From NCBI GenBank assembly GCA_905235515.1, contig CAJOLV010000005.1:6409-70408 (forward strand): a DNA stretch of 64,000 bases. The letters are read 5' to 3'. Numbering within the stretch: position 1 is the first letter of the stretch; every line of letters starts with the position of its first letter. Positions 20,962 through 43,132 of the stretch are shown piece after piece. The DNA is from an uncultured Bacilli bacterium (GTDB lineage Bacteria; Bacillota_I; Bacilli_A; RFN20; CAG-826). Position numbers and translations under genes: made by a program. The notes under the pieces are model-generated. The model made no database searches and was not told where the DNA came from. It saw only the letters and a list, made by a program, of their open reading frames with translations.

Positions 20962-22716
20962 TTATTTATCAGGGAATTTTTCACGATCTGCGACATAACT
21001 TGTATGTAATAATTCTTCAGCTTTTTCGCTTAATGGATGGCCTAGGAATTCGTCGTATAATCTTTGAATATCCTTGTTGTTATGAGATTGACGAATAACT
21101 TGTCTTTCGTCTTCGCTATAGAGAACAGCAGCTCTCTTTTGGCGATATGTTTCGAGGATGTCATCATCTTCATTTGGCAATAATGTTGGATGGACATATG
21201 GTTGACCACCGCCATTGATACAGCCACCTGGACAGCACATAATTTCAATGAAGACATAAGGTGATTTGCCAGCTTTAACTTCGTCTAATAATGGTTTTGC
21301 ATTTTTCATACCAGAGGCCACTGCGACTTTCACACCGAGTTCTTTAATCTCTGCTTCTTTAACGCCTTGTAAACCACGAACTTCCTCAAAGTTAATCTTA
21401 GCGTATTCTTTACCTGTGAGTTTCCAATAAGCTGTTCTTAAAGCGGCTTCCATAACACCACCAGTAACACCAAAGATGACACCAGCGCCAGAGTATTCAC
21501 CTAATAAGTCTTGGTCATATTCTTCTTCTGGAAGTTTTTGCCAATTGATACCAGCACGTTTAATCATTTTAGCTAATTCACGTGTTGTTAAAACGGCATC
21601 AACATCATTAGGCATTTGTTTTCTAGCGCGTTCATATTTCTTAGCAGTGCATGGCATGATGGAGACATTGAAGATATCCTTTGGATCGATACCATGTTTT
21701 TCTGCGAAGTATGTTTTTGTAATCGCACCTTGCATCATATGTGGGGATTTACATGTAGAAATGTTTGGAATAATTTCTGGATAGAAGTATTCCATGTAGT
21801 TAATCCAACCTGGTGAGCAAGATGTAATTTGTGGTAAGACACCTTTATGTTGAATTCTTTCTAATAATTCAAAGGCTTCTTCCATAATGGTTAAATCAGC
21901 ACCGAAGTTTGTATCAAAGACTCGATAGAATCCTAAACGGTGTAAAGCTGCAACCATCTTACCGGTACCACAGGTACCAATCTTTTCACCGAATTCTTCC
22001 GCGATAGCAGCTCTCACTGCAGGAGCGGTTTGAACGATAACATATTTACCAGCTTTGAATGCTTCATCGACTTTGTCGATTTCGCTATGTTCCATTAATG
22101 CACCTGTTGGACAAACATTAACGCATTGACCACATTGCAAACATGGGGAATTAGCAAAACTTCTGTTTTGAACCGGGGAAACAATTGTTTTAAAACCACG
22201 ATTTTCAAAACCCAAGATGGCAATACCTTGTGCTTCTTTACAGCGTTCAATACAACGCCCACAGAGGATACATTTTGCGGTATTTCTGATAATACCAGGA
22301 GCAACTTCATCTAAAGTCTTTTCGGTCATTTCACCAACGAATTTTTGGTCACGAGCACCGACCATTTCAGCGACGTGTAAGAGTTCACAATGACCATTTT
22401 TTGGACATTGTAAACAGTTCTTTTCGTGGTTGGAGAGGATTAATTCAACAGATGCTCTACGAGCAGCAGTTGCTTTTGGAGAAGAAATGGAGATTTCCAT
22501 CCCTTCATTAACTGGATACACACAGGAAGCGCATAATCCACGCGCACCTTTAATTTCAACTAAGCAAACACGGCAAGATGCTTGTGAACATTTACCATGA
22601 TTAAAAGCGCATAAAGAAGGAATTTCATATCCGCATTTGCGGCAGGCTTCTAAAACGGTTAATGAATTATCAACTTGATATTCATGACCTTCGATTTTGA
22701 TATTAATTAACGCCAT
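20962..22716 (-). CDS. hydA: [FeFe]-hydrogenase catalytic subunit (HydA/HndD-type, M3 architecture with N-terminal 2Fe-2S + 4Fe-4S domains and C-terminal small-subunit-like tail)
   Basis: H-cluster motifs L1 'TSCSPGW' (variant), L2 'MPCTAKKYE', L3 'EIMCCPGGCINGGGQP'; ferredoxin CxxCxxC...CP motifs; N-terminal 'CRVC' 2Fe-2S. Confidence 0.9.
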   Translation of the reverse strand: MALINIKIEGHEYQVDNSLTVLEACRKCGYEIPSLCAFNHGKCSQASCRVCLVEIKGARGLCASCVYPVNEGMEISISSPKATAARRASVELILSNHEKNCLQCPKNGHCELLHVAEMVGARDQKFVGEMTEKTLDEVAPGIIRNTAKCILCGRCIERCKEAQGIAILGFENRGFKTIVSPVQNRSFANSPCLQCGQCVNVCPTGALMEHSEIDKVDEAFKAGKYVIVQTAPAVRAAIAEEFGEKIGTCGTGKMVAALHRLGFYRVFDTNFGADLTIMEEAFELLERIQHKGVLPQITSCSPGWINYMEYFYPEIIPNISTCKSPHMMQGAITKTYFAEKHGIDPKDIFNVSIMPCTAKKYERARKQMPNDVDAVLTTRELAKMIKRAGINWQKLPEEEYDQDLLGEYSGAGVIFGVTGGVMEAALRTAYWKLTGKEYAKINFEEVRGLQGVKEAEIKELGVKVAVASGMKNAKPLLDEVKAGKSPYVFIEIMCCPGGCINGGGQPYVHPTLLPNEDDDILETYRQKRAAVLYSEDERQVIRQSHNNKDIQRLYDEFLGHPLSEKAEELLHTSYVADREKFPDK

Positions 22717-22728
22717 GATTATTTCCTC

Positions 22729-24618
22729 CTATCTCTTAATGATGGCACCGAAGCGGCAACCACTCATACATGCACCACACTTGACACATTTCGCTGGGTC
22801 GATGTGATGGACAAATTTACCAGGTAATTTAGCTGGCTGATCAGTTGTACCAATGGCGTTAACTGGACAGTTACGAGCACATAAGGTACATCCCATACAT
22901 TTTTCTGGAACAATGTAATATTCCATCATGTTTTTACAAACATGAGCAGGGCATTTGTGGTCAACAACGTGTGCCTTGTATTCTTCTGGGAAAGCCTTCA
23001 TTGTTGATAAGATTGGGTTGGTAGCGGTTTGACCTAAAGCACAGAGAGAGTTATTTCTAATAACATCACTTAATTCCTCTAATTCATCGAGGTCTTCAGG
23101 TGTACCTTTGCCATCACAAATCTTGGTTAAGATGTCTAAACATCTCTTGGTGCCAATACGACATGGAGAACATTTACCACAAGATTCATCACAGATGAAT
23201 GTCATGTAGAATTTTGCGACGTCAACCATACAGTTATCTTCGTCCATAACGATTGCACCACCAGAACCCATCATACTTCCAGCAGCAACTAAGCTACCAA
23301 AGTCGATTGGTGTATCTAGGTCTTTTTCGGTTAAGCAACCACCGGATGGGCCACCAGTTTGAATGGCTTTGAATTTCTTACCACCAGGGATGCCACCACC
23401 GACATCATAAATTAATTGTCTTAACGTTGTGCCCATTGGAACTTCAACAAGACCAACATTATTAATCTTACCACCAAGAGCAAACACTTTTGTGCCACGT
23501 GTATCGGCTGTACCGATAGCAGCGAATTTTTCCCAACCTTCTCTTAAGATATATGGAACGCAAGCTAATGTCTCAACGTTGTTGACAACTGATGGGCAGC
23601 CCCATAAACCTTTTACTGCTGGGAACGGAGGACGTGGACGTGGCATACCACGTTTTCCTTCAATACTATTAATTAATGCTGTTTCCTCACCACATACGAA
23701 TGCGCCAGCGCCTAATCTAATATGGCAGCGGAATGAGAAGTCTGTACCTAAGATGTGATCACCTAAGATACCTAATTCTTCTAAGTCTTTAATAGCTTTG
23801 GCTAATCTTTGAACGGCGATTGGATATTCAGCACGAACATAGAAGTAACCATTTTGGGCGCCGATTGCGTAACCAGCAATCATCATGCCTTCAATAACCG
23901 CGCATGGGTTACCTTCAATGATAGATCTGTCCATGAATGCACCTGGGTCACCTTCGTCACCATTACAAATCATATATTTTGGACCATCTGTCTTTGGAAC
24001 AAAGGACCATTTTCTACCGGTTGGGAAGCCTGCACCACCACGACCACGTAAGCCTGATTTTAAAACTTCATCAATGACTTCTTCTCTGGTCATAGATAAG
24101 GCTCTTCTTAAACCTTGGAAAGCACCTAAGCCAATGGCTTCGTTGACATCTTCTGGGTTAATTTCACCATTACCGTGTAAAGCGATATCTCTTCTTTGCA
24201 ATTTGTAGAAGTTAATATCGTGTTGTTTTTGCACTTTTTGTTTTGTTTGTGGATCGACAAATAGTAAGCGTTCGACAATCTCGCCACCTAAAATGTCTTT
24301 TTCCATGATTTCTTCAACATCTTTCACCTTAACTTTTGTGTATAAAGTTTCTTCTGGGAAGATTTTGACGAACGGGCCTTGGGAACAGAAACCAAAGCAA
24401 CCGACGATATTGCAAGTAACTTTTTCTTCTAAGCCTTTTTCTTTAATTAATTCATTGAAACGTTCAATGATACCTTGTGAATCGCTGGCCAAACATCCAG
24501 TACCACCACAGACAACGATTGCTCTATGTCCTGGTTCACAATGAAATTTCTTTTGTAAACATGCGCCGCAATGTTCAATGCGCTCTTGTAATTCTTTTTC
24601 GTTAGTGATCTTTGCCAT
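22729..24618 (-). CDS. hydB: NADH-binding flavoprotein subunit of hydrogenase (NuoF-like HydB/HndC) with N-terminal thioredoxin-like 2Fe-2S and C-terminal 2x[4Fe-4S] domains
   Basis: 'GRGGAGFPTGRKW' NADH site, 'GAGAFVCGEETALINSIEG' FMN site, 'CGKCSPCR' N3 cluster, C-term 'CMGCTLCARNCP...CVKCGACMSGC'. Confidence 0.9.
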   Translation of the reverse strand: MAKITNEKELQERIEHCGACLQKKFHCEPGHRAIVVCGGTGCLASDSQGIIERFNELIKEKGLEEKVTCNIVGCFGFCSQGPFVKIFPEETLYTKVKVKDVEEIMEKDILGGEIVERLLFVDPQTKQKVQKQHDINFYKLQRRDIALHGNGEINPEDVNEAIGLGAFQGLRRALSMTREEVIDEVLKSGLRGRGGAGFPTGRKWSFVPKTDGPKYMICNGDEGDPGAFMDRSIIEGNPCAVIEGMMIAGYAIGAQNGYFYVRAEYPIAVQRLAKAIKDLEELGILGDHILGTDFSFRCHIRLGAGAFVCGEETALINSIEGKRGMPRPRPPFPAVKGLWGCPSVVNNVETLACVPYILREGWEKFAAIGTADTRGTKVFALGGKINNVGLVEVPMGTTLRQLIYDVGGGIPGGKKFKAIQTGGPSGGCLTEKDLDTPIDFGSLVAAGSMMGSGGAIVMDEDNCMVDVAKFYMTFICDESCGKCSPCRIGTKRCLDILTKICDGKGTPEDLDELEELSDVIRNNSLCALGQTATNPILSTMKAFPEEYKAHVVDHKCPAHVCKNMMEYYIVPEKCMGCTLCARNCPVNAIGTTDQPAKLPGKFVHHIDPAKCVKCGACMSGCRFGAIIKR

Positions 24619-24623
24619 AACAA

Positions 24624-25106
24624 TTAAGCCTCCAAAGCGCGATAATCCGCGACAATTTTCTTCACGTCGTCAACTTTAACTTGTGGATAAACCTTACCAT
24701 TAATACTAACGGCTGGTGCACACGCACAAGCACCGATGCAACGGAGAACATCGATTGTAAACAAACCATCAGCAGTTGTCTCACCGGCTCCCACACCGAG
24801 GATTTCTGAGAATTTGTCTAAAACCAAATTACTACCTTTAACGTAACAGGCAGTACCTAAGCAAACGCCAATGACATATTTTCCTTTTGGTGTCATTGAG
24901 AAGAATGAATAGAAAGTGACAACACCGTAAATATCACTGAGTGGCACTCCAGTGAGTTCACTAACTAACTCTTGGACTTCTAAAGGAATGTATCCGTATT
25001 CCTTTTGGATGTCCTCAAGAATCATCATGGTAGATGTTGGTTCATCTTTGTAGCGTTCACAGATTTCTGTAATAAGTTTTACAGCATGAGCTTGCAATTT
25101 AGCCAT
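24624..25106 (-). CDS. hydC: NuoE-like thioredoxin-fold [2Fe-2S] subunit of hydrogenase (HydC/HndA)
   Basis: 'CLGTACYVKGS...CIGACACAPAVSING' 2Fe-2S pattern. Confidence 0.9.
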   Translation of the reverse strand: MAKLQAHAVKLITEICERYKDEPTSTMMILEDIQKEYGYIPLEVQELVSELTGVPLSDIYGVVTFYSFFSMTPKGKYVIGVCLGTACYVKGSNLVLDKFSEILGVGAGETTADGLFTIDVLRCIGACACAPAVSINGKVYPQVKVDDVKKIVADYRALEA

Positions 25107-26639: not shown

Positions 26640-29009
26640 ATGCTAAGTATCAAAAAAAGAAACGGTAGTGTCCAAGACTTCAACATTACCAAAATCCAAA
26701 ACGCGATTGAAAAGGCGTTCATCGCAGAACACAAATTCTACAATAAAGATATCATTGAAATGTTAGCGTTACGTGTCGTAGCGGATTTTAATGATAAAGT
26801 TCGTAACAGTTTAATATCAGTCGAAGATATCCAAGACTCAGTGGAAATCGTTTTAGTCCAATCTGGTTTCGTGGATGTTGCTAGATCATACATGATTTAT
26901 CGTAAACAACATCAAAACTTAAGAGAACTTTCTGGTACTGAATTAGATTATAAAAAAGTCGTTGATAACTATTTAGGTGTCAGTGACTGGAGAGTTAAAG
27001 AAAACTCTACAGTTACCTATTCTGTTGGCGGTTTAATCCTTTCCAATTCTGGCGCTGTTACAGCAAACTATTGGTTAAGTGAAGTTTACGATAAAGAAAT
27101 CGGTGATGCCCATAGAAACGCTGATATTCATATCCATGACTTATCCATGTTAACTGGCTACTGTGCTGGTTGGTCATTAAAACAATTAATTCAAGAAGGT
27201 TTAGGCGGTGTCGTTGGTAAGATTACATCTTCTCCAGCTAGCCACTTATCCACTTTATGTAACCAAATGGTTAACTTCTTAGGCATTATGCAAAATGAAT
27301 GGGCCGGCGCTCAAGCATTCTCTTCATTCGATACCTATTTAGCCCCATTTGTTAAAGCTGATAATTTAACATATAAAGAAGTCAAACAATGCATTCAATC
27401 CTTCATCTATGGTGTTAACACTCCATCAAGATGGGGAACTCAAGCTCCATTTACAAATATTACCTTAGACTGGGTTGTTCCAAATGACTTAGCCGAACTC
27501 AACTGTATCGTTGGTGGCAAAGAAATGCCATTCAAATACAAAGATTGTGCGGAAGAAATGGCAATGGTTAACAAAGCCTTTATCGAAATTATGATTGAAG
27601 GTGACGCTAATGGCCGTGGTTTCCAATACCCAATCCCAACATATTCCATCACCAAAACATTCGACTGGTCTGAAACAGAAAATAATAAATTATTATTTGA
27701 AATGACCGCCAAATATGGAACACCTTACTTCTCTAACTACATCAATTCCGATATGGAACCAAGCGATGTTAGAAGTATGTGCTGCCGTTTAAGATTAGAC
27801 TTACGTGAATTAAGAAAGAAATCTGGTGGTTTCTTCGGTTCAGGTGAATCTACTGGTTCTATCGGTGTTGTTACAATCAATATGCCAAGACTTGCTTACT
27901 TAGCAATGGACGAAGCTGATTTCTATGATCGCTTAGATAGAATTATGGACTTATCCGCTCGTTCCTTACACATTAAGAGGGAAACAGTTACTAAATATCT
28001 AGAAGCTGGTTTATATCCATATACAAAACGTTATTTAGGTACATTCAATAACCACTTCTCCACTATCGGTTTAGTCGGTATGAACGAAGCATGCTTAAAT
28101 GCTAAGTGGTTAAGATGTGATTTAACCAATCCTAAAGCCATTGAATTCACCAAAGCCGTTCTCAATCATATGAGAGAAAGACTTTCTGATTATCAAGAAT
28201 TATATGGTGACTTATATAACTTAGAAGCTACCCCAGCAGAATCCACTGCTTATCGTTTAGCAAAACACGATAAGAAATTATATCCAGAAATTATCACTGC
28301 TGGCGAAGCAGGTGGTACGCCATATTACACTAACTCTTCTCACTTACCAGTTGGCTATACAGAAGATGTTTTCAAAGCTCTTGATATTCAAGATCAATTA
28401 CAAACTCTCTATACATCTGGTACTGTTTTCCATACATTCTTAGGTCAAAAACTTCCAACTTGGAAATCTTGTATGAACTTAGTGAGAAAGATTGCGGAAA
28501 ACTACCACATTCCTTACTACACAATGTCTCCAACATACTCTGTTTGTAAAGAACATGGTTATTTAAAAGGCGAACAATTCATTTGCCCACACTGCGGTCA
28601 AAGAACAGAAGTCTATTCCCGTATTACTGGTTACTATAGACCAATTCAAAACTGGAATGATGGCAAGACCGAAGAATATAAGCAAAGATTAGAATACGTT
28701 CCAGCGAACTCTCATTTAACTCATGGTATTGATCGTGATGATGAACACGCAACAGAACAATCTCAACCTAAGGTTGATGAAACATTATTATTTGCCACTA
28801 AAACATGTCCAAACTGTAAGATGGCAAAAATGTTATTAGAAAAAGCTGGTGTCTGCTTCAGAACCATTTATGCAGAAGATGATGCTGATTTAGCTAAACG
28901 TTTCAAAGTCGTTAAAGCTCCAACATTAATCGTTCCAGGAAAAGAAACTTATAGCGTTTATGAAAACGCTTCTAACATCAAAGGTTTCGTAGAAAGTTTA
29001 AAGAACTAA
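26640..29009 (+). CDS. nrdD: Anaerobic ribonucleoside-triphosphate reductase (class III, NrdD) with N-terminal ATP-cone and a fused C-terminal glutaredoxin/NrdH-like redoxin domain
   Basis: ATP-cone 'IKKRNGSVQDFNITKI'; Zn ribbon 'CKEHGYLKGEQFICPHCG'; glycyl-radical motif 'SRITGYYRP'; then ~35-aa linker and 'TKTCPNCKMAK...KAPTLIV' thioredoxin-fold CxxC domain. Confidence 0.9.
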   Translation: MLSIKKRNGSVQDFNITKIQNAIEKAFIAEHKFYNKDIIEMLALRVVADFNDKVRNSLISVEDIQDSVEIVLVQSGFVDVARSYMIYRKQHQNLRELSGTELDYKKVVDNYLGVSDWRVKENSTVTYSVGGLILSNSGAVTANYWLSEVYDKEIGDAHRNADIHIHDLSMLTGYCAGWSLKQLIQEGLGGVVGKITSSPASHLSTLCNQMVNFLGIMQNEWAGAQAFSSFDTYLAPFVKADNLTYKEVKQCIQSFIYGVNTPSRWGTQAPFTNITLDWVVPNDLAELNCIVGGKEMPFKYKDCAEEMAMVNKAFIEIMIEGDANGRGFQYPIPTYSITKTFDWSETENNKLLFEMTAKYGTPYFSNYINSDMEPSDVRSMCCRLRLDLRELRKKSGGFFGSGESTGSIGVVTINMPRLAYLAMDEADFYDRLDRIMDLSARSLHIKRETVTKYLEAGLYPYTKRYLGTFNNHFSTIGLVGMNEACLNAKWLRCDLTNPKAIEFTKAVLNHMRERLSDYQELYGDLYNLEATPAESTAYRLAKHDKKLYPEIITAGEAGGTPYYTNSSHLPVGYTEDVFKALDIQDQLQTLYTSGTVFHTFLGQKLPTWKSCMNLVRKIAENYHIPYYTMSPTYSVCKEHGYLKGEQFICPHCGQRTEVYSRITGYYRPIQNWNDGKTEEYKQRLEYVPANSHLTHGIDRDDEHATEQSQPKVDETLLFATKTCPNCKMAKMLLEKAGVCFRTIYAEDDADLAKRFKVVKAPTLIVPGKETYSVYENASNIKGFVESLKN

Positions 29010-29012: not shown

Positions 29013-29921
29013 ATGTTTGATGTTATTGTTGTCGGTGGCGGTCCTGCAGGAATGGGCGTCGCTCTCAACTTGCTTAGAGCAGGTCGAGACGTCCTCATTT
29101 TGGAATGCAACGCCTTCGGTGGACAAATGGCAACTTCTCCAAGACTAGAAAATATTCCAGGTACCATTTCTATTTCTGGATTAGAATTCTCTGATAAATT
29201 ATTTGAACAAATTACTGAATTAGGTGCGCAGTTTGAATTAGAAACTGTGACTGAAATTCAAAAAAAAGACGGCAGTTTTGTCGTAAAAACTGACTGGAAT
29301 AGCTATGAATGCCATGCGGTTGTCTTAGCTAATGGTTGTTCTCATAGAAAGATGGGATTGCCAAAAGAAGACGAACTAGTCGGACATGGTATCTCCTATT
29401 GCGCAGTTTGTGATGGAGCCTTTTATGTCGGTCATGAAGCTTGCATCATTGGTGACGCCAATACAGCGTTACAATATGCATTAATGCTCGGTAATTATTG
29501 TCCAAAAGTTCATATCTTTGCTTTATTCAATCGTTTATTTGCGGATCAAATCTTAATTGATAGAGTGAAAAACGATGCAAAATATGACGTGACCTATAAT
29601 GTCTCTCTTCAAGAGTTCATTGGTGAAGATGAATTAAAAGGACTAAGATTTAAAAACACTCAAACCGAAGAAGAATTCACAATTAAAACAAATAATGTCT
29701 TCATCGCAATTGGTCAAATCCCACACAACGAACCATTTAAAGATTTAATTGAATTAGATAAAGGATTTGTTGTCACTAATGAATTAATGGAAACTAATGT
29801 TCCAGGCATATTCGCAGTTGGTGACACTCGTAAAAAAAGCGTTCGCCAAGTTATTACCGCATTAGGTGATGCTAGCGTTGCCGCTGTGATGATTGATCGA
29901 TACTTAAGAAATCTTGAATAA
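29013..29921 (+). CDS. Thioredoxin-reductase-like flavoprotein (FAD + CAVC redox-active disulfide) with degenerate NAD(P)H-binding motifs; candidate ferredoxin-dependent (FFTR-like) thioredoxin reductase
   Basis: 'VIVVGGGPAGMG' FAD site, 'YCAVCDGA' active site; second GxGxxA is 'IIGDANTA' and HRRDxxR replaced by 'ALFNRLFAD'. Confidence 0.7.
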   Translation: MFDVIVVGGGPAGMGVALNLLRAGRDVLILECNAFGGQMATSPRLENIPGTISISGLEFSDKLFEQITELGAQFELETVTEIQKKDGSFVVKTDWNSYECHAVVLANGCSHRKMGLPKEDELVGHGISYCAVCDGAFYVGHEACIIGDANTALQYALMLGNYCPKVHIFALFNRLFADQILIDRVKNDAKYDVTYNVSLQEFIGEDELKGLRFKNTQTEEEFTIKTNNVFIAIGQIPHNEPFKDLIELDKGFVVTNELMETNVPGIFAVGDTRKKSVRQVITALGDASVAAVMIDRYLRNLE

Positions 29922-29926
29922 GATAA

Positions 29927-29956
29927 GCCATCCTCAGTGATGGTTTTCTTTTTTTA
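29927..29956 (+). terminator. Bidirectional terminator between trxB-like and nrdG (CCATC-ctcagt-GATGG + T-tract)
   Basis: 5-bp stem followed by TTTTCTTTTTTT. Confidence 0.4.
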
Positions 29957-29970: not shown

Positions 29971-30657
29971 TTAATATCCTCTTAATTCGATTTTAGAAAT
30001 ATATTTATTTAACACTTTTATAAATTCTTTAGCGGTTTCTTCTTTAACTTCATGAAGACCTTTTTGAATGCAGCCGTCTCTTTCCACAAACTTCTGTAGA
30101 TAAAGCACTTTTGCGCCTTTGATTAAGCTTGCTAATTCTTCCATATCTTCTACTTTATGGAACTCATCCACTAATGTGGTTCTAAATTCATAGTCAACGC
30201 CAGAATTCATAATGAGCTCAATACTCTTTTTGATATTATTCATGTTTACTTGTTTTGTGCCGGTAGTTAAAGCATATTTTTCTTCCGAATTTTTAATATC
30301 CATAGCGATGTAATCTAGAAGATTAGAATCAATTAAATCTTTGACAACATCAGGATTAGTTCCATTAGTGTCTAATTTAACCAAGAATCCTAATTCTTTT
30401 ACTTTTTGGATGTGTTTTTTAAGATTTGGTTCTAATGTTGGTTCCCCACCAGTGAACACCACTGCGTCTAACAATCCTTTTCTAGATTTAAGATAATCTA
30501 ATGACGCATCAAATAAGATTTCATCTTCTGCTTGTAAAACTGTTAAACCATTATGGCAGAACGGGCATCTGAAATTACATGTCTTATAAAATAGGACACA
30601 ACTAATCTTATCTTCATAGTCCAATAAGGACATTTTGTCTAGTCCAACCAAGCTCAT
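29971..30657 (-). CDS. nrdG: Anaerobic ribonucleotide reductase activating protein (radical SAM)
   Basis: 'CNFRCPFCHN' CxxxCxxC cluster motif, 228 aa. Confidence 0.9.
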   Translation of the reverse strand: MSLVGLDKMSLLDYEDKISCVLFYKTCNFRCPFCHNGLTVLQAEDEILFDASLDYLKSRKGLLDAVVFTGGEPTLEPNLKKHIQKVKELGFLVKLDTNGTNPDVVKDLIDSNLLDYIAMDIKNSEEKYALTTGTKQVNMNNIKKSIELIMNSGVDYEFRTTLVDEFHKVEDMEELASLIKGAKVLYLQKFVERDGCIQKGLHEVKEETAKEFIKVLNKYISKIELRGY

Positions 30658-30728: not shown

Positions 30729-31199
30729 ATGAAAGCATCAAATATTTCTTGGGATGAATATTTCATGGGTATTGCCTTACTTTCCTCTTTGAGAAGTAAA
30801 GATCCGAATACCAAAGTTGGAGCTTGTATCGTTGATGATGACAACAAGGTGGTTTCAATTGGCTATAACGGTATGCCTGCAGGTTTGGATGAGGATCAAT
30901 TATCCTGGAACAGAGGCGAAGGTTTAGACAGCAAATATTTATATGTTTGTCACGCTGAATTTAACGCTATCTTAAATACCCGTAACGGCGCATCCCTCCG
31001 TGGCTGTAGATTATATGTCACCTTATTCCCTTGCAATGAATGTGCAAAAGCCGTTATTCAAACAGGCATCAAAGAAGTTGTCTATTTAGATAACAAATAT
31101 CAAGATACCACTGGTGTTCAAGCATCATTAAAGATGTTAAAACTCGCTGGTATCAAAATCAGAAAGTACGAAGAAGACGTACCAGAAATCAATTATTAA
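30729..31199 (+). CDS. dCMP deaminase (ComEB-type cytidine/deoxycytidylate deaminase)
   Basis: Zn motifs 'CHAEFNAI' and 'PCNECAKAV'. Confidence 0.85.
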   Translation: MKASNISWDEYFMGIALLSSLRSKDPNTKVGACIVDDDNKVVSIGYNGMPAGLDEDQLSWNRGEGLDSKYLYVCHAEFNAILNTRNGASLRGCRLYVTLFPCNECAKAVIQTGIKEVVYLDNKYQDTTGVQASLKMLKLAGIKIRKYEEDVPEINY

Positions 31200-31200
31200 A

Positions 31201-31992
31201 ATGACTATTAAAGAATACGTAAAAGTCAAAAAAGCAGAGATAAGAGAATATGTTTTATCTATGCCAAGAAAACCAAAACTAGTAATTGTTCAAATCAATG
31301 AAGATGAAGCTAGTTATGCTTATATCCGTGGCAAATTAAAAGATGCTGCTGATTTAGGTATTGAAGCAGAATTAATTAAACTACCTTTAGAAACTTCCCA
31401 AGAAGAATTATTAAAAAAAATTGATGATCTAAATCACGATTCATCAGTTGATGGCTTTATCGTTCAAATGCCTTTGCCAAAACAAATTAATGAGGAGACA
31501 GTTAAATTAGCTATTGCTCCAAATAAAGATGTCGATGGTTTCCATCCGTTAAGCAAGTTAGATCCGTGCACTCCTAGAGGCATTATGAACTATCTAAATT
31601 CTAAAAATATAAAAATTCAAGGGAAAAATGCAGTGGTTATTGGCCGTTCTAACATTGTTGGTAAGCCAATGGCGAAATTATTATTAGCGGCGAACGCTAA
31701 TGTAACAGTGCTTCATTCTAAAACAAGTTTTGAAGATATGAGAAACTATATTGCTAATGCAGATATCATTGTTATTGCGATTGGAAAAGCTGGATTCTTA
31801 GACAAAAAATTCACTTATAAACCAGATGCAGTTCTTGTTGATGTTGGTATTAATCGATTAGAAGATGGCTTACACGGTGACGCAATTGCTAACCTTCCAG
31901 TTGGATTACAAACTCCAGTCCCAGGTGGTGTTGGATTACTCACTAGATTAGCGTTATATGAAAATCTTTTAACAATTGTTAATGGAAAATAG
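31201..31992 (+). CDS. folD: Bifunctional methylenetetrahydrofolate dehydrogenase/cyclohydrolase
   Basis: 'GFIVQMPLP', 'DVDGFHP', 'GRSNIVGKPMA', 'PGGVGLLT'. Confidence 0.9.
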   Translation: MTIKEYVKVKKAEIREYVLSMPRKPKLVIVQINEDEASYAYIRGKLKDAADLGIEAELIKLPLETSQEELLKKIDDLNHDSSVDGFIVQMPLPKQINEETVKLAIAPNKDVDGFHPLSKLDPCTPRGIMNYLNSKNIKIQGKNAVVIGRSNIVGKPMAKLLLAANANVTVLHSKTSFEDMRNYIANADIIVIAIGKAGFLDKKFTYKPDAVLVDVGINRLEDGLHGDAIANLPVGLQTPVPGGVGLLTRLALYENLLTIVNGK

Positions 31993-33994: not shown

Positions 33995-34075
33995 TATTAA
34001 AACCTCCTCGTGTTAAAAATATAATACAAAAAAGGAATAGATTTCTCCATTCCTTAATTGATATTAGTGACTAGA

Positions 34076-34477
34076 TTATTCAACCCAAGTAACAACACTG
34101 ATAGGAGCGTTATCACCTTTACGGTTACCTAATTTTAATCTTCTGGTGTAGCCACCATTACGGGATTTGAATTTAGGACCTAATTCATTGAATAAGACAT
34201 CTAAGGCTTTAACGCCTTGTTCATTTTCAATGTTTCTGACAAATCTAGCAGCTTGTCTTTTCGCATTCATGACATCTTCTTTTTTGGTTAATGTCACTAA
34301 ACGGTCAGCTTCTTTAACAACGTCACGAGCAGTGGCTTCTGTGACTTTGACAGTGCCGTGAAGAATTAAATCTGTCACAACATTACGAAGCATATTTTCA
34401 TATTTGCTCTTTGTGTAAGCGGCCTTAAATCTAACGCCTGTCTTACCATGAACATTTTTTCTACCTTGTGCTGGCAT
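34076..34477 (-). CDS. rplQ: 50S ribosomal protein L17 (with ~17-aa N-terminal extension)
   Basis: 'AYTKSKYENMLRNVVTDLILHGTVKVTEATA' L17 core; GGAGG RBS at annotated start. Confidence 0.9.
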   Translation of the reverse strand: MPAQGRKNVHGKTGVRFKAAYTKSKYENMLRNVVTDLILHGTVKVTEATARDVVKEADRLVTLTKKEDVMNAKRQAARFVRNIENEQGVKALDVLFNELGPKFKSRNGGYTRRLKLGNRKGDNAPISVVTWVE

Positions 34478-34491
34478 ATTTAATCCTCCTA

Positions 34492-35460
34492 TTATTCAAA
34501 GTCTTTAAAGGCTAAGTTATAACTGATAAGTTTTTCTTTAATTTCTTTTAAGGATTTCTTACCAAGGTTCTTGACCTTCATCATATCTTCCTCAGTCTTT
34601 TCTGTTAATTCAAGAACAGTTTGGATACCCGCTCTCTTGAGACAGTTATAAGAACGAACAGAGAGATCGAGTTCTTCGATTGGGAAGTTTTCGTATTTGT
34701 TTTCTTCGACTGGAGCGACATCCTTTTCGATATTAATATCGCGTGTAATATCCGCAACGCCTAAGAATTTTTCAAAGTGTTTAATTAATAAGTTAGCACT
34801 TTCAGCAAGAGCCACTTGTGGGGTGATGGAACCATCAGTCCAAACTTCAACTGTTAATTTATCGAAGTGTGAATCGTGACCAACACGGGTGTTATCGACT
34901 GTGTAGTTAGCTTTTCTCACTGGAGAATAGTTACTATCAGTAGCGATTGTACCTAATTGGAGGTTTGGATGGAGAACTTTATTTTGTTCGCCAGTGACAT
35001 AACCTCTACCATTACGAGCGTGGAGAACCATGTGTAAGCTACCACGATCTGTTAAATGGGCAAGAACTAATTCTGGGTTGACGACTTCTACGCCTGTTGG
35101 GCAAATAATGTCACCAGCGGTAATAACGGCAGGACCTTGAGCTTTGATTTCAAGTCTCTTATTGCCATCATCTTCTTCGTCAATACGGAGAATTAAATCT
35201 TTTAAGTTGAGAATGATGGTTGTGACGTCTTCTTCCACACCTTCTAAAGCGGTGAATTCGTGACGTGCACCTTCAACTTCAACAGCGTAAACGGATGCGC
35301 CTGGTAAGGATGAGAGTAAAACTCTACGTAAAGCATTACCTAAGGTTAATCCGAATCCTCTTTCGAGTGGTTCGATAACGAAGCGACCATAATTTTCATT
35401 ACCATCATAGTCTGCTTGGGTGATTTCAAATCTTTCAAATGGATTAGCAATTTTCATCAT
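34492..35460 (-). CDS. rpoA: DNA-directed RNA polymerase subunit alpha
   Basis: 322 aa, 'ERGFGLTLGNALRRVLLSSLPG'. Confidence 0.95.
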   Translation of the reverse strand: MMKIANPFERFEITQADYDGNENYGRFVIEPLERGFGLTLGNALRRVLLSSLPGASVYAVEVEGARHEFTALEGVEEDVTTIILNLKDLILRIDEEDDGNKRLEIKAQGPAVITAGDIICPTGVEVVNPELVLAHLTDRGSLHMVLHARNGRGYVTGEQNKVLHPNLQLGTIATDSNYSPVRKANYTVDNTRVGHDSHFDKLTVEVWTDGSITPQVALAESANLLIKHFEKFLGVADITRDINIEKDVAPVEENKYENFPIEELDLSVRSYNCLKRAGIQTVLELTEKTEEDMMKVKNLGKKSLKEIKEKLISYNLAFKDFE

Positions 35461-35472
35461 TCTTACCTCCTA

Positions 35473-35862
35473 TTAGCCTCTTGGGCGTTTTGGTGGACGG
35501 CAACCGTTATGTGGGATTGGTGTGCTATCAACGATAGATAACACTTGTAAGCCAGCGACGGCTAAGCTACGGATTGCGCCTTCTCTACCTGGGCCTGGGC
35601 CTTTGACATCGACATCGACTTGACGAATACCTTGTTCATAGGCAGCTTTGGCAGCGGCTTCAGCAGCTTGCATAGCGGCGAATGGTGTACTTTTCTTTGC
35701 GCCTTTAAAGCCCATCGCACCAGCGGAGGACCATGTTAAGGCGTTACCTTGTTCATCACAAATTGTGACGATTGTGTTATTGAAAGTTGAGTGAATGTGG
35801 GCGACGCCTTTCGTAAATGAGCGTTTAATTTTCTTTTTACGAGCATTAGTTTTTTGTGCCAT
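35473..35862 (-). CDS. rpsK: 30S ribosomal protein S11
   Basis: Sequence and operon position. Confidence 0.95.
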
Positions 35863-35883
35863 AACTATTTACTACTCCTTTCA

Positions 35884-36261
35884 TTAACCTTGTGGCGCCA
35901 TCTTCTTATTCGCAATGGTCTTACGTGGACCTTTACGTGTTCTGGCGTTGGTTTTACTTCTTTGACCACGGACTGGTAAACCTCTTCTATGACGTGTGCC
36001 ACGGTAGCAGCCGATTTCGGTTAAACGTTTGATATTTAACGCGACTTCACGTCTGAGATCACCTTCGGTCTTATATTTACCGATTTCATTTCTAATTGCA
36101 CCGAGTTGATCATCGGTTAAATCTTTAACTCTGATTGTGCCGTCGACTTTTGCGCCTTCGCAAATAAGTTCAGCGGTATGTCTTCCGATACCATAAATAT
36201 AGGTAAGGGAAATTTTGACTGGTTTGTCATTAGGAATATCTACACCTACTAAACGTGCCAT
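35884..36261 (-). CDS. rpsM: 30S ribosomal protein S13
   Basis: '[13 protein letters not shown]'. Confidence 0.95.
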
Positions 36262-36276
36262 ATTCTAATATCCTCC

Positions 36277-36390
36277 TTAACCTTGTCTCTGCTTATGCTT
36301 TGGATTTTCACAAATGACCATAACTTTGCCATTTCTCTTAATCACTTTGCATTTTGGGCAGATTGGTTTGACTGAAGGTCTGACTTTCAT
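36277..36390 (-). CDS. rpmJ: 50S ribosomal protein L36 (37 aa; below ORF-track cutoff)
   Basis: Hand translation '[37 protein letters not shown]' with AGGAGG RBS. Confidence 0.9.
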
Positions 36391-36414
36391 AATTTCTTTC
36401 CTCCTAGTTTGATT

Positions 36415-36633
36415 CTACTTGAATCTAAATGTTATGCGGCCCCGTGTTAAATCATAAGGCGAGATTTCTACTGTAACTTTATCACCTGGGAGAATGCGTA
36501 TGTAATTCATACGGATTTTTCCAGAAACGGTGGCCAAGATTACAACGCCGTTCTCTAGCTTAACCTTGAACATGGTGTTCGGTAAGCATTCTGTAACGAC
36601 CGCCTGTACTTCGATCATATCTTGTTTAGACAT
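36415..36633 (-). CDS. infA: Translation initiation factor IF-1 (start MSKQDMIEV; track ORF longer)
   Basis: '[45 protein letters not shown]'. Confidence 0.9.
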
Positions 36634-37399
36634 ATAGTTTCTTTTCCTCTTCTGTGAGAGTAATAATTTCTCTTCCGTTTTCGGTAATGACGATGGTGTT
36701 TTCATAGTGACAAGTTAGTTTCCCATCTCTACTTTTAACAGTCCATCCGTCACCGAGGATACGTGTATCTTTTCTTCCTTCAAGAACCATTGGCTCAATG
36801 GCTAATGTCATTCCTTTTTGAAGAAGTGGTCCACTACCTTCTTTACCAAAATTAGGAATTGATGGATCTTCATGCATGCTTTTACCAATACCGTGACCGG
36901 TAAAGTCTCTAGCGACATTATATCCGTTACTCTCGACTGTTTTTTGGATTGCGCTTTGAATATCGCCTAAGTGATTGCCTGGTTTGGCTTGAGCAATTCC
37001 GTTAAAGAATGCTTGTTTAGTTACTTCCATCAATCTTTGAGCGCGTTCACTAATGATGCCTATCGCGAATGTACGTGTCGCATCAGCGCAATAGCCTTGA
37101 TAATTCGCCACGACATCAAGGGAGACGATATCTCCTTCTCTTAAAATAATCTTATGAGAAGGAATACCATGAATTAATGTGTCATTAACACTAACGCAGG
37201 TCATCGCTGGATAATCATAATATCCTTTGCACGGACCAGTGCAACCCATTGAGGTAATCACTTCTTCCGCTTTAGCGTTGATCTGATAAGTAGAAACACC
37301 TGGTTTCATCAATTTGCCACATTCTTCAAAGACTTTAGCAACGACTTCGCCGGCCTTCTTCATTAATTCGATTTCCCTTGTTGACTTGACGATAATCAT
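36626..37399 (-). CDS. map: Methionine aminopeptidase type I
   Basis: 257 aa, metal ligands pattern '[12 protein letters not shown]...HGIG'. Confidence 0.9.
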
Positions 37400-37401
37400 A
37401 A

Positions 37402-38052
37402 TTATTTGTTTAAAAATTTAGAAACTTGATCGAAGAGTTCTTCTTTACCCACTAAGGAATTAAAGGATTCTAGCAAGCCTTCTTTGGCGTAGAAATCTAA
37501 TAATGGCTTAGTGTCTTGAACATAGTGTTCTAAGCGGACTTTTAACGCTTCTTCATTATCATCCGCTCTTTGATAGAGTGGTCCACCACAGATATCACAG
37601 ACACCTTCAACCTTTGGTTTTAAGGTGATGACATGATATGGGGCGCCACAAGTTTTGCAAACTCTTCTGCCACTGATGCGGCGAATGAGTTCAGCATTGT
37701 CACAATCTAAGTTCACAACAACTTCAATTGGACGATTTATTTCTTTTGATAATTCTCTTAACGCTTCCGCTTGTGGAAGGGTTCTTGGAAAACCATCAAG
37801 TAAGAAACCTTTCGCGCAATCACCTTGACTAAGGCGTTCTTTGACTAAGCCAATTGTGACTTCATCTGGAACTAAATCACCTTTATCAATATATGATTTT
37901 GCTAATGTGCCAAGAGGTGTACCTGCTTTAATGGCGTCTCTAAACATATCACCTGTTGAGATATGAACGAGATTTAAAGCGGACATTAATTGCTTGGCAA
38001 GAGTGCCTTTTCCCGCTCCGGGAGGACCCATTAAGATAATGTTTTTCTTCAC
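37402..38052 (-). CDS. adk: Adenylate kinase (zinc-lid type)
   Basis: 'GPPGAGKGT' P-loop; 'CKTCGAPYH...CDICGG' lid. Confidence 0.95.
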   Translation of the reverse strand: MKKNIILMGPPGAGKGTLAKQLMSALNLVHISTGDMFRDAIKAGTPLGTLAKSYIDKGDLVPDEVTIGLVKERLSQGDCAKGFLLDGFPRTLPQAEALRELSKEINRPIEVVVNLDCDNAELIRRISGRRVCKTCGAPYHVITLKPKVEGVCDICGGPLYQRADDNEEALKVRLEHYVQDTKPLLDFYAKEGLLESFNSLVGKEELFDQVSKFLNK

Positions 38053-39404
38053 TAGTCTCTTCCTCCTGCTGCGACGACTTCGTCGAATGATTTACCAGCT
38101 AATAAGCCATCGATTTGGGTGTTAAGCTCGAGAGCGACACCAACAACGATGATTAAGCCAGTTCCACCGAGTGCTAAACTTGGATAATCTTTGAAGACTG
38201 TCAAGGTGAGGACACTTGGTAATGCGGCAATGATAGCTAAGGCCATCGCACCGATGAATGTCACGCGGTTAAGAACTTTACGAACATATCTTTCGGTTTC
38301 AATACCTGGTCTCACACCAGGAATATAAGAGCCGTTTTTCTGGAAGTTTTCCGCTAATTGTTCAGGATTGATTTGTAAATTAGCATAGAAGAAGGTGAAC
38401 ATAATGGTTAAGGCGAGATAGATAATCAAGCCCCAAGGCATACTCCAACTTCCCATGTTGGTCATCTTACTACTAGAGAAGACATTGAGCCATTCAGCGT
38501 TAGTGTCACTGCCTAAGAAACCGACAATGATACTTGGAGCAGTCATAATTGAGCTAGCAAAGATGACTGGGATAACGCCTGCGGAGTTAATCTTAATTGG
38601 TAAGAAACTCGCTTTGGCCATTGATTGAGTTTGTCCTCCACCCTTTCCTGAATGTTGTACTGGAATCTTTCTCTTTGATAATTCAACGAATGTAACAAAG
38701 GAGATGATGAGTAAGAAGGAGAGGATGTAAAGAAGGAATGAGAAGACGCCTTTAATAAGTTGGGCATCTCCTGGGTTAGCACCGATAATCCATCTTTGGA
38801 AAGCAGTGCTAATTTGATTTGGTAAGGAGCAGACGATACCCGCAAAAATAATCATGGAAATACCGTTACCGATACCTTTAACAGAGATTTGGTCACCTAA
38901 CCACATCACTGTCATTGAGCCAGCAAGCATGACCACGACGACATAGACATATGTAAGCCATGGAGTGCTACCAGCGGAGAAGCTGACTAAGTCACTTGTC
39001 TCCATTGTTTTAATGATGCCATAAGCTTGGACAGCACCTAACATAAGAGTTAAGTAACGAGTCGCTAATTCCATCTTTTTACGACCATATTGGCCTTGAC
39101 GTTTTAATTCAGATAAGGCTGGTAAGACATCGGTCGCTAATAATTGAACGATAATCTGCGCAGTAATATATGGGGAAACGCCTAATGCGAAGATGGAGAA
39201 TGTTTGTAATGTTCCACCGCCTAAGATGTTCATTAATGCCAATGCGTTATTACTTTCTAAGTAAGTAGATAAGTTTTCACTTTCTAATGTCGCACCTGGA
39301 ACAGTAATCTGACATCCAATACGGAAGATGAATAGGATCAAGATCGTAAACATAATACGATTCATGATCTCTTTGTTTTTAAGAATTGATCCTAATTTCT
39401 TCAT
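38052..39404 (-). CDS. secY: Protein translocase subunit SecY
   Basis: 450 aa, 10 TM, operon position. Confidence 0.95.
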   Translation of the reverse strand: MKKLGSILKNKEIMNRIMFTILILFIFRIGCQITVPGATLESENLSTYLESNNALALMNILGGGTLQTFSIFALGVSPYITAQIIVQLLATDVLPALSELKRQGQYGRKKMELATRYLTLMLGAVQAYGIIKTMETSDLVSFSAGSTPWLTYVYVVVVMLAGSMTVMWLGDQISVKGIGNGISMIIFAGIVCSLPNQISTAFQRWIIGANPGDAQLIKGVFSFLLYILSFLLIISFVTFVELSKRKIPVQHSGKGGGQTQSMAKASFLPIKINSAGVIPVIFASSIMTAPSIIVGFLGSDTNAEWLNVFSSSKMTNMGSWSMPWGLIIYLALTIMFTFFYANLQINPEQLAENFQKNGSYIPGVRPGIETERYVRKVLNRVTFIGAMALAIIAALPSVLTLTVFKDYPSLALGGTGLIIVVGVALELNTQIDGLLAGKSFDEVVAAGGRD

Positions 39405-39406
39405 AA

Positions 39407-39847
39407 TTAGATCACCTCAATTTTGCCACCAGCTTCATTAATAGCTTGTTCGGCTGATTTGGAGAATTTATTAGCTTGGACAGTTAAGGCTTTGCTTAAT
39501 TTGCCATTACCTAATACTTTAATTCCATCATATTCCTTACGGACTAAACCGGATTCAATTAATAAAGTTGGAGTGACCAATGTACCGGCTTCAAATCTTT
39601 CAAGCGCGGAAACATTAATGACTGCATAATTGACATGATTAACATTCTTAAAACCACGTTTTGGTAATGCTCTGAATAATGGTAATTGACCACCTTCGAA
39701 GCCTAAACGGACACCACCGCCTGATCTAGCATTTTGACCTTTGTGGCCTTTGCCAGCGGTTTTGCCGTTACCACTACCTTCACCACGGCCTTTACGCCAA
39801 TTGGCTTGACGGCTGCCAGCGGTTGGTTGAAGTTCATGCAATTTCAT
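39407..39847 (-). CDS. rplO: 50S ribosomal protein L15
   Basis: Gly/Lys-rich N-term, operon position. Confidence 0.95.
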
Positions 39848-39887
39848 AAATGCACCTCCTTAATTCAATTTTTGCTATAAGCAATAA

Positions 39888-40511
39888 TTATTCTTTACTA
39901 CGAAGAGTTTTAATCTCTTTATAGTTCTTAAGGCTTTCTAAACCTTGGTTGACAGCGCGGACAATGTTGATTGGGGCGCGGCTACCATAAACTTTGGAGC
40001 AAACGTTTTGCACGCCTGCTAATTCTAAGACCGCACGAACTGGGCCACCGGCGATAATTCCGGTACCTTCAGGTGCTGGTTTTAATAAGACGGAGCAAGC
40101 TCCATATTTACCGACGACTTCGTGAGAAATGGTATTACCTTTAACAAGATGAATCTTGAAGAGGTTTTTCTTCGCGGCTTCGGTAGCTTTTTTAATAGCA
40201 TCTGGGACTTCAGCGGCTTTGCCGAGAGCAAATCCGTATCTACCTTTATGATCACCAATGACCATTAAGGCGGTGAATTTCATACGACGTCCACCTTTAA
40301 CGGTTTTACTAACTCTGTTAATAAAGACGACTCTTTCCTCAAATTCTTTTGGTTCATCACGACGGACATCTTTACGATCTCTTCTTGGGCCACCTTTACG
40401 GTCACCACGTGGACGACGATCTTGTGGACGTCTTTCGCCTTCTTTAGGAGCTTCGACTGGAGCTGGTTGTTCCGCAACTGGTGCTTCTTGAACTAATTTT
40501 TCTTCTTCCAT
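39888..40511 (-). CDS. rpsE: 30S ribosomal protein S5 with ~45-aa charged low-complexity N-terminal extension
   Basis: Core '[29 protein letters not shown]'; N-term '[49 protein letters not shown]'. Confidence 0.9.
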
Positions 40512-40525
40512 TTGTTACTCCTCCA

Positions 40526-40882
40526 TTAGAATTCTAAGCCAGCTTCACGAGCGGCTTCTGCTAATGCTTTGATTCGACCGTGATAAACATAACCACTTCT
40601 ATCAAAGACGATTTTCTTTAAACCTTTGGCGAGTGCTTTTTCAGCGATGTCTTTGCCAACTTTACCAGCAGCTTCAATATTGGAGCCATTTTCAAGTTTT
40701 AAGGACATAGAGGAGGAAGACACTAAAGTGCAACCTTTCACATCGTCAATAAGTTGTGCTTCGATGTTTTTGTTTGAACGGTAGACACATAATCTTGGTG
40801 CTTCCGCGGTGCCAGAGATTTTGGCTCTAACACGGGCATGTCTACGAACACGTGAGACATTTTTGGATTCTTTTTTGACCAT
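40526..40882 (-). CDS. rplR: 50S ribosomal protein L18
   Basis: operon position, 118 aa. Confidence 0.95.
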
Positions 40883-40901
40883 AATTATCTATCTCCTTTC
40901 A

Positions 40902-41459: not shown

Positions 41460-41470
41460 AAACTATCCTC

Positions 41471-41863
41471 CTACCAGATATAAGCGATAACTTCGCCACC
41501 GATACCTAAGGTTCTTGCTTTTGCATCGGTCATCACACCTTGAGAGGTGGAAATAATAGCGATACCTAAGCCTTTAAGAACTTTTGGTAATTTTTCACAA
41601 CCGACATTAACGCGCAAGCCTGGTTTAGAGATTTTCTTACAACCAGAGATAACACGTGTGCCATCTGCTGCGTATTTTAATGTGATTGTTAATTCTTTTT
41701 TGACTTCGCCTTTGACTTTATAGTCAACGATGAAGCCTTCGTCTTTTAAGATTCTGGCGATTTCCACTTTCATCTTGGAACTTGGTATCTTCACAGATTC
41801 ATATCTTAATTGGTTTGCGTTTCTAATGCGGGTAAGCATATCCGCGATTGGATCAGTCATCAT
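41471..41863 (-). CDS. rpsH: 30S ribosomal protein S8
   Basis: '[13 protein letters not shown]'. Confidence 0.95.
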
Positions 41864-41884
41864 AAATAATCGATATCCTCCTTA

Positions 41885-42070: not shown

Positions 42071-42084
42071 TGTGAGCTCCTTTC

Positions 42085-43117: not shown

Positions 43118-43132
43118 AGTTATCTATCCTCC

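Follow-up and report, generated by a model that had tools for sequence, protein, structure and literature searches.

A candidate dedicated reductase with a remodelled donor site for a redoxin-fused class III ribonucleotide reductase in uncultured Bacilli

The stretch of DNA analysed here (64,000 nucleotides, hereafter the window) comes from an uncultured Bacilli bacterium of the GTDB lineage Bacteria; Bacillota_I; Bacilli_A; RFN20; CAG-826 (GenBank assembly GCA_905235515.1, contig CAJOLV010000005.1, positions 6,409 to 70,408 of the forward strand), and our subject is the trxB-like gene at positions 29013-29921, which encodes a flavoprotein related to thioredoxin reductases (TrxRs). This gene directly follows nrdD, whose product is a class III ribonucleotide reductase (RNR) with a redoxin domain fused to its C-terminus, and the residues that make up the NADPH site in the solved relatives of the flavoprotein are replaced by others that its close family conserves. 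We propose, with middling confidence and from sequence comparison, that the trxB-like open reading frame (ORF) encodes the dedicated reductase of the NrdD-fused redoxin and that its donor would not be NADPH but most likely a low-potential protein carrier. An original prediction, made by a model from the sequence without database searches, had seen in the same gene a candidate enzyme of the type of FFTR, a flavin thioredoxin reductase that depends on ferredoxin.

The reductase gene and its partner

The features of the reductase on which the argument turns are the following.

29013-29921, + strand: trxB-like flavoprotein disulfide reductase, ATG start, 302 amino acids (Pfam, structure and NCBIfam matches, homologues)
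29034-29051, + strand: FAD-binding GGGPAG, residues 8-13 (motif search; invariant in the family)
29400-29411, + strand: redox-active CAVC, residues 130-133 (aligned to the CAVC of 7AAW and 4GCM)
29451-29468, + strand: GDANTA, residues 147-152, in place of the pyrophosphate-binding GGGxSA (HMMER alignment and homologue comparison)
29520-29546, + strand: ALFNRLFAD, residues 170-178, in place of HRRDxxRAx, the 2'-phosphate site (HMMER alignment and homologue comparison)

The ORF matches Pfam Pyr_redox_2 (PF07992, 1.7e-39, residues 2-286), and its closest solved relatives by HMMER are NADPH thioredoxin reductases (NTRs), namely those of B. cereus (7AAW, 2.5e-64) and S. aureus (4GCM, 9.4e-59). GGGPAG, a second FAD motif near the C-terminus (GIFAVGD, residues 265-271) and a central CxxC place it in the low-molecular-weight TrxR superfamily. 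The original prediction held that GGGPAG and CAVC were intact, as they are, and that both NAD(P)H motifs were replaced (by IIGDANTA and ALFNRLFAD), which the HMMER alignment to 7AAW upholds. Mis-assignment of the motif positions, an outcome it had itself named as fatal, is set aside by the alignment to solved NTRs: the assignment is correct because IGDANTA faces IGGGDSA and IFALFNRLFA faces IVHRRDTLRA of 7AAW. Residue by residue, the G-G-G of the canonical pyrophosphate turn reads G147-D148-A149, while at the 2'-phosphate site H, R and R have become A170, L171 and F172 and the final R is F176. The pair GxGxxA and HRRxxxR, by which an NTR is recognized, is in other words represented by GDANTA and ALFNRLF at the aligned positions.

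The partner gene and its immediate surroundings are laid out as follows.

26640-29009, + strand: nrdD, class III RNR of 789 amino acids with ATP-cone, NRDD core and fused C-terminal redoxin domain (Pfam, NCBIfam)
27777-27788, + strand: NrdD finger-loop MCCR (double Cys and Met), residues 380-383, aligned to SCCR of T. maritima NrdD (4COI; classification according to PMC9669993)
28218-28241, + strand: NrdD NLEATPAE with the active-site Glu, residues 527-534, aligned to NIEQVPAE of T. maritima NrdD
28752-29006, + strand: NrdD C-terminal redoxin tail, about residues 705-789, with CPNC at residues 723-726 (nucleotides 28806-28817) and a cis-Pro-type KAPTL
29925-29946, + strand: terminator-like hairpin and T-run between the convergent trxB-like gene and nrdG (sequence scan; the sole such hairpin, just 3' of the trxB-like stop)
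29971-30657, - strand: nrdG, radical-SAM activase of NrdD (NCBIfam TIGR02495 NrdG2, 208.4 bits, cut-off 131)

NrdD contains the Pfam domains ATP-cone (2.1e-20), NRDD (3.1e-189) and Glutaredoxin (2e-06, residues 717-767) and scores 1124 bits on NCBIfam NF006126, whose cut-off is 548. A double-Cys finger loop together with an active-site Glu is associated with thiol-dependent class III RNRs (PMC9669993, PMC4493059), and the window NrdD displays the full set of thiol-dependent, NrdD2-type features: MCCR (in the context RSMCCRLRL), NLEATPAE, the beta-A Cys in YCAGW (174-178) and the glycyl-radical RITGY (661-665). The formate-dependent NrdD of P. copri reads SILATPAE where the window protein reads NLEATPAE. 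The tail gives weak matches to glutaredoxin (Grx), NrdH and small thioredoxin (Trx) structures, the best being 3IC4 (E 0.0012).

The stop codon of nrdD (29007-29009) is followed by 3 nucleotides and then by the ATG of the trxB-like gene. Because of this gap, and because the terminator-like hairpin comes only after the trxB-like gene, the two genes can be read as a bicistronic, translationally coupled unit. In an Rfam scan of the window, whose sole match was one tRNA at 11309-11382, no regulatory RNA turned up near the operon.

In the mechanism that we propose, the trxB-like product would be a homodimer-type FAD disulfide reductase of the low-molecular-weight TrxR fold, and electrons would pass from the donor to FAD, on to Cys130/Cys133, to the CPNC of the NrdD tail, to the active-site cysteines of NrdD and finally to the ribonucleotide. 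The acceptor half of this path, in which the reductase would reduce the CPNC tail and the tail in turn the NrdD active-site cysteines, is predicted with high confidence.

One module with three donor-site classes

We define the module as an NrdD with a C-terminal CPxC redoxin domain and a TrxR-like gene directly downstream on the same strand. Loci were sampled by a family-alignment scan with one genome per GTDB species, giving 80 loci, to which more were added by contig look-ups; linkage was called by tblastn with the window NrdD core, redoxin tail and NrdG, followed by motif extraction. Apart from the window, with its 3-nucleotide gap, the module was met in 51 other loci, in hosts that comprise Bacilli metagenome-assembled genomes (MAGs), Oscillospiraceae, Acutalibacteraceae, Ruminococcus, Christensenellaceae, Phascolarctobacterium and one bin labelled Bacteroidales. 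The link to deoxynucleoside triphosphate (dNTP) synthesis drawn in the original prediction is stronger than was argued there, since the reductase is coupled to a redoxin-fused NrdD and the pairing persists in these 51 other loci. In all linked loci the finger loop of NrdD reads RSMCCRLRL, its Glu motif is the same and its tail bears CPNC or CPKC, and the gap between nrdD and the reductase gene is -1 to +4 nucleotides in most close relatives, from Bacilli MAGs to Oscillospirales and Negativicutes. Among the sampled reductases without HRRxxxR, 51 of 57 are NrdD-linked; no housekeeping NTR of the Bacillus type met in that scan is. The linked reductases fall into three classes according to their donor-site motifs.

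Class A (that of the window): G-D-[AG]-N-[TS]-A and [TA]LF[DN]xxFxD, 13 linked loci
Class B: GGGN[ST]A and (V/I)QNLxxxTGE, 29 linked loci (L011, L013, L015-L018, L020-L022, L024, L026-L028, L030, L032, L034, L036, L037, L040, L041, L048, L049, L053, L055, L057, L069, L074, L077, L084)
Class C (canonical): GGGxSA and HRRDxFRGE, 9 linked loci

A CPNC- or CPKC-tailed NrdD lies directly upstream in 13 of the 13 core class-A loci whose upstream sequence is readable (the window, L001, L003, L005-L010, L046, L085, L093 and L095). Class B reductases, whose gene lies at about 5001-5900 of most of their loci, carry no acidic residue at the position that usually specifies NADH. The thioredoxin-docking positions are broadly kept in the linked reductases, as G-H/K-G and A-F-Y, where NTRs have GR/KG and FF (PMC9025218). 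Because the same NrdD and tail motifs accompany reductases of classes A, B and C, the acceptor side of the module (redoxin tail, reductase CxxC, docking residues) is constant and the donor side alone varies. On TIGR01292, the NCBIfam equivalog model for thioredoxin-disulfide reductase, the window protein scores 292.9 bits, under the curated cut-off of 343.45; two other class-A members score 278 and 310, the NrdD-linked canonical enzyme of L012 346.2 and the Bacillus housekeeping NTR of L052 408.6.

The replacement residues are themselves conserved. A homologue search that covered about 5.8 billion proteins gave 120 closest homologues, with 66-100% identity: every one (120/120) carries [IVL][IV]GD[AG]N[TS]A together with LF[DN]x[LF][FYHA]xD, CAVC is kept in 116, and the second fingerprint Gly has become Ala in 112. 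The signature also occurs in 50%-identity cluster representatives (P0121-P0126, P0137, P0139, P0231 and others). Comparison of the trxB-like gene with four orthologues gave dN/dS values of 0.09-0.19, with a dS of 0.74 for the nearest. On account of the 120/120 conservation and these ratios, the gene is judged functional and the replaced residues selected in their own right, so that the change at the donor site reads as a conserved alternative and not as decay. A screen of 16 core class-A members against 37 enzymes that keep HRRxxxR, for positions conserved to at least 85% in class A and rare elsewhere, returned five: D148 (Gly elsewhere), Y155 (Glu/Asp), L171 (Arg), F176 (Arg) and D178 (Glu/Gln). 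All five lie within the former NADPH site, and this 16 versus 37 comparison gave no class-A-specific residue outside it. D148 is invariant in class A, and every other class has Gly at that position.

Some observations bear on the distribution of class A and its relatives. A class-A module whose NrdD is 79% identical to that of the window stands on a 527-kb contig labelled uncultured Bacteroidales (L007, CAVJMG010000001.1), either through horizontal transfer or through a taxonomic mislabel of the bin. Viral contigs of 94-148 kb (L088/L089, 5001-5915, P0140; IMG/VR L096-L106) code for divergent TrxR-like proteins of the GD type (GDGNTA and TLFDKFFCE), whose genes stand beside those for an exonuclease V/Dda-like helicase, a ClpP-like head protease and PhoH; neither NrdD nor NrdG was found within 8 kb of them. 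The phage TrxR-like proteins belong to PHROG phrog_6397, annotated 'ribonucleotide reductase large subunit', a name that RefSeq likewise gives to gp344 of Bacillus phage G (NC_023719.1, 253642-254496). Since the match is to the TrxR fold, the name looks mis-transferred, unless some members are fusions.

The likely electron donor

That NADPH is not the donor we conclude with moderate confidence, because the 2'-phosphate site has lost its His and all three of its arginines and the pyrophosphate turn holds an invariant Asp. The replacements G148D, E155Y, R171L, R172F and R176F would make the NADPH pocket acidic and aromatic. By analogy with FFTR and with the cyanobacterial enzyme DTR, which have no NADPH motifs and use ferredoxin (PMC10880999, PMC8154056), a reduced carrier that acts at the flavin, ferredoxin or flavodoxin, would be the likeliest donor, an assignment in which our confidence is lower. 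The window enzyme would then be analogous to FFTR in function, having arisen among the NrdD-linked NTR-like reductases and outside the clostridial FFTR clade.

Several observations weigh against this proposal. The glycine-rich motif is lost only in part (GxGxxA to GxAxxA), and some class-A relatives read GDGN[ST]A with both glycines, so that a dinucleotide could still bind. The TrxR of T. acidophilum, which lacks HRRxxxR, offers a precedent, having first been called pyridine-nucleotide independent and later been shown to use NADH (PMC6262447). A comparison of net charge and pI between classes A, B and C and unlinked NTRs showed no positive shift in class A (-10.8 versus -8.8 for unlinked NTRs), and the absence of a basic shift leaves the docking of an acidic ferredoxin without support from charge. 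Among window ORFs of at least 40 amino acids, ferredoxin, flavodoxin or thioredoxin signatures were seen in hydrogenase subunits only, and none of the orthologous loci looked at has a conserved ferredoxin or flavodoxin gene. When the motif columns were masked, a neighbour-joining tree still placed core class A together, but at a weak bootstrap of 19/100 that leaves its monophyly tentative; even the Bacillus NTR clade reaches only 50/100. On the side of the partner, a Met before the finger-loop cysteines could also permit the use of formate (PMC9669993); as MCCR keeps this Met, formate use by the window NrdD is still possible and the redoxin route may not be its sole one. The donor and acceptor assignments for all family members rest, moreover, on sequence.

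The same partial loss of the glycine motif lends some weight to the view that the enzyme still works with a pyridine nucleotide, as a reductase of the NrdD tail that depends on NADH, or is relaxed in its specificity, and dispenses with the 2'-phosphate arginines. This we consider unlikely, but credible. The Rossmann beta-alpha-beta unit is kept with the first Gly and the final Ala of GxGxxA, the Phe and Leu that replace Arg could pack against adenine, and besides the TrxR of T. acidophilum, which uses NADH, there is the TR of T. maritima, which prefers it (PMC5627308). What tells against NADH is the invariant Asp148 in the pyrophosphate turn, which would be expected to repel the pyrophosphate and which is Gly elsewhere, the Ala that stands for the second fingerprint Gly in nearly all close homologues, and the end of beta-2, which reads A/T-L-F and holds no acidic residue of the kind usual in NADH-specific enzymes.

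It is improbable that the protein is the general thioredoxin reductase of the cell, or one of several, and that its place beside nrdD reflects mere conservation of gene order. The kept docking residues would suit such a role, and no other trxB or trx gene was seen in the 64-kb window; against it speak the tight coupling of the two genes across distant lineages and the contrast between the 51 of 57 HRRxxxR-less reductases that are NrdD-linked and the Bacillus-type housekeeping NTRs, of which none is.

Descent from the ancestor of the FFTRs of C. pasteurianum and C. acetobutylicum would account for the loss of the same two motifs in an anaerobic Firmicute. The original prediction had stated that FFTRs show these losses, in agreement with published descriptions (PMC10880999, PMC5627308), and had called for an alignment with the NTR, FFTR and DTR families. 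The motif losses stand in that alignment; the scores, however, are highest with NTRs and far lower with FFTR and DTR.

NADPH thioredoxin reductases, various structures: 140-221 bits to the window protein (7AAW 220.7, 4GCM 202.4)
Cyanobacterial DTR, 5J60: 120.9 bits
Clostridial FFTR, 6GNA / 6GND / 6GNC: 107.7 / 103.1 / 97.8 bits
DvTRi, 5NII: 81.4 bits
DDOR, 5JRI: 55.7 bits

The FFTR alignment pairs query residues 2-292 with chain residues 7-278, which implies that FFTR falls short by about 19 residues there; the window protein has the length of an NTR. When an AlphaFold2 model built from a shallow alignment of 13 sequences (mean pLDDT 70.4, used for fold search only) was submitted to Foldseek, the top 50 matches were all NTRs and included no FFTR. 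Outside class A, the nearest relatives of the window protein are NrdD-linked enzymes of the canonical or QNL type (41-45% identity), ahead of Bacillus NTRs (37-40%). Common descent with FFTR is decidedly improbable on this evidence, which consists of bit scores, length, nearest relatives and a fold search. Of the label 'FFTR-type', the absence of both motifs thus survives and the descent does not: the window reductase may work like an FFTR, yet from outside the FFTR clade. It resembles FFTR in having a low-molecular-weight TrxR fold with FAD and CxxC, no GxGxxA or HRRxxxR, an anaerobic Firmicutes host and a specific redoxin partner, but FFTR genes pair with a free trxA (PMC10880999), whereas the acceptor domain is here fused to NrdD. 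Two proteins considered as motif-less FFTR candidates (P0164, P0145) were rejected, both being nearest to NTRs, and a plasmid search for clostridial FFTR found none, a match from Gloeothece being a 553-amino-acid protein.

Barely credible is an idle or regulatory partner of NrdD, for instance a scaffold or redox sensor without the electron-input site that it once had: the canonical donor site is indeed gone and no donor gene is conserved nearby, but the FAD motifs and CxxC are invariant under strong purifying selection, and the replacement residues are invariant too, which points to a selected new function of the pocket.

Two further NADPH-independent enzymes invite comparison with the ferredoxin- or flavodoxin-fed reductase proposed here. 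The cyanobacterial DTR/FFTR enzymes (G. violaceus; 5J60, 6XTF) are NADPH-independent and ferredoxin-reduced, and the window protein shares their TrxR fold; DTR has a C-terminal tail with a Trp that stacks on the FAD of the other subunit (PMC8154056), whereas the window protein has no such tail: it closes with ...AAVMIDRYLRNLE, its residue 302 falls level with the end of NTRs, and its sole Trp is in TDWNSY. The TRi of Desulfovibrio vulgaris (DvTRi, 5NII) is likewise a TrxR-like flavoenzyme with remodelled pyrophosphate and 2'-phosphate motifs, and it is not reduced by NAD(P)H (PMC5627308); it differs in carrying a TQ/NGK motif for HRRD (PMC5627308), where the window protein has ALFN, and in not being linked to NrdD.

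Genomic surroundings, related systems and meaning

The original prediction also leaned on a hydrogenase in the neighbourhood, whose parts are these.

20962-25106, - strand: trimeric HydABC-type [FeFe] hydrogenase, whole set (NCBIfam and domain matches)
20962-22716, - strand: hydrogenase catalytic subunit (group A6 NADH-dependent [FeFe] model, 799.5 bits, cut-off 765)
22729-24618, - strand: NuoF-like ORF with an N-terminal 2Fe-2S thioredoxin-like domain and C-terminal 4Fe-4S motifs
24624-25106, - strand: NuoE-like ORF (profile match)

The trimeric hydrogenase with its NuoF- and NuoE-like subunits is real, but the argument for ferredoxin built on it fails. It lies 1.5 kb off on the opposite strand, with a D-2-hydroxyacid dehydrogenase gene in between, and its synteny is kept in L001 (68% identity); in its place NAD kinase is found in L003 and L085, accompanied by an NfnAB-like pair in the former and by an ArsC-like gene in the latter, and L093 has unrelated genes. 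A functional association of hydrogenase and reductase was rejected on the loss of adjacency in these last three loci, and the neighbourhood gives the ferredoxin argument no support because the synteny is not kept and the window contains no separate ferredoxin, flavodoxin or thioredoxin ORF. In L003 (284-3211, minus strand) the NfnAB-like pair consists of a DHODB_Fe-S_bind protein and a GltD-like protein, and NAD kinase lies divergently upstream of nrdD both there and in L085 (1378-2160). The recurrence of genes handling NADP or ferredoxin near the module may be chance.

Beyond nrdG, at 30729-31992 (+ strand), come a dCMP deaminase gene (156 amino acids) and a 263-amino-acid ORF with a candidate FolD-like sequence; since they adjoin nrdG, a small deoxynucleotide/one-carbon gene cluster seems to be present here. 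Farther off, the stretch 34000-48000 differs from the rest of the window in its GC content (0.40-0.43 versus about 0.33 elsewhere), with a strongly negative AT skew and dense short ORFs on the minus strand, and may correspond to a ribosomal-protein operon.

To our knowledge, the in vivo re-reduction of thiol-dependent class III RNRs is known for two systems only, those of Neisseria and Methanosarcina. The former uses NADPH, TrxR and Trx, the latter ferredoxin, an Fe-S FDR and NrdH. The NrdD2 enzymes of N. bacilliformis and T. maritima resemble the window system in their thiol dependence, in the double-Cys finger loop with Glu and in a route through a redoxin and a TrxR-type flavoenzyme, and papers that cite the original work describe NrdD2 as drawing electrons from NADPH by way of thioredoxin reductase and thioredoxin (Wei et al. 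2014, cited in PMC9669993 and PMC4493059). These enzymes differ in that the window redoxin is fused to NrdD, that its reductase belongs to the same operon and has no NADPH motifs, and that the finger loop is MCCR and not SCCR. As far as the citing account describes it, the class III RNR of M. barkeri is served by a ferredoxin-fed redoxin route (Wei et al. 2015, ref. 32 of PMC6262447): this NrdD3 system shares with the one that we propose a dedicated NrdH-like redoxin, an NAD(P)H-independent disulfide reductase and ferredoxin as the ultimate donor, but, on the same account, it is archaeal, its reductase is an Fe-S, FTR-like protein and not a flavoprotein, its redoxin is unfused and its finger loop comes without the Glu and the Met. 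Fusions of Grx to an RNR subunit provide a further parallel, with a redoxin domain that acts as the reductant of the subunit to which it is fused (PMC6187632). In F. ignava Grx-ATP-cone-NrdB the Grx is glutathione-dependent and N-terminal on NrdB, and one grx::nrdD fusion, for which no partner reductase is given, is listed for Lachnospiraceae bacterium TWA4 (PMC6187632). The window tail is set apart from these fusions by its CPNC with a Trx-like cis-Pro motif and by a TrxR-like gene of its own.

Pyridine-nucleotide-independent enzymes of the TrxR fold (FFTR, DTR, TRi, DFTR), thiol-dependent class III RNRs and the ferredoxin route of Methanosarcina are already known. A literature search whose reach excluded subscription papers, where an earlier mention is possible, brought up no account of the NrdD(redoxin)-TrxR-like module, nor of the three classes of donor site or the GD/LF..F class. 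We put forward, tentatively and as a possibility more than an expectation, that the module is a self-contained reductant system for class III RNR in Firmicutes whose electron-input site has switched at least twice, from the HRRD of NADPH enzymes to QNL and to GD/LF..F, and that the GD/LF..F type evolved independently as a pyridine-nucleotide-independent enzyme fed by ferredoxin or flavodoxin.

The module is widespread in gut and rumen Firmicutes, with the redoxin hard-wired to NrdD and a private reductase supplied. Its natural reductase variants, which differ at the donor site only, form a comparative set for the choice of donor in TrxR-fold enzymes, and through the module one can ask whether strict anaerobes draw on ferredoxin or flavodoxin rather than NADPH to make DNA precursors. 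It also flags a problem of annotation: members of the family, all those seen coming from uncultured organisms, are called 'FAD-dependent oxidoreductase' by NCBI or 'thioredoxin reductase (NADPH)' by IMG, so that the same proteins receive different names according to the pipeline. The activation of class III RNR by NrdG needs a low-potential carrier anyway. If the tentative reading of a separately evolved, ferredoxin- or flavodoxin-fed GD/LF..F type is true, the uncultured gut Bacilli and Clostridia that carry it would run both NrdG activation and the turnover of the RNR on low-potential carriers, and would make their dNTPs independently of NADPH.

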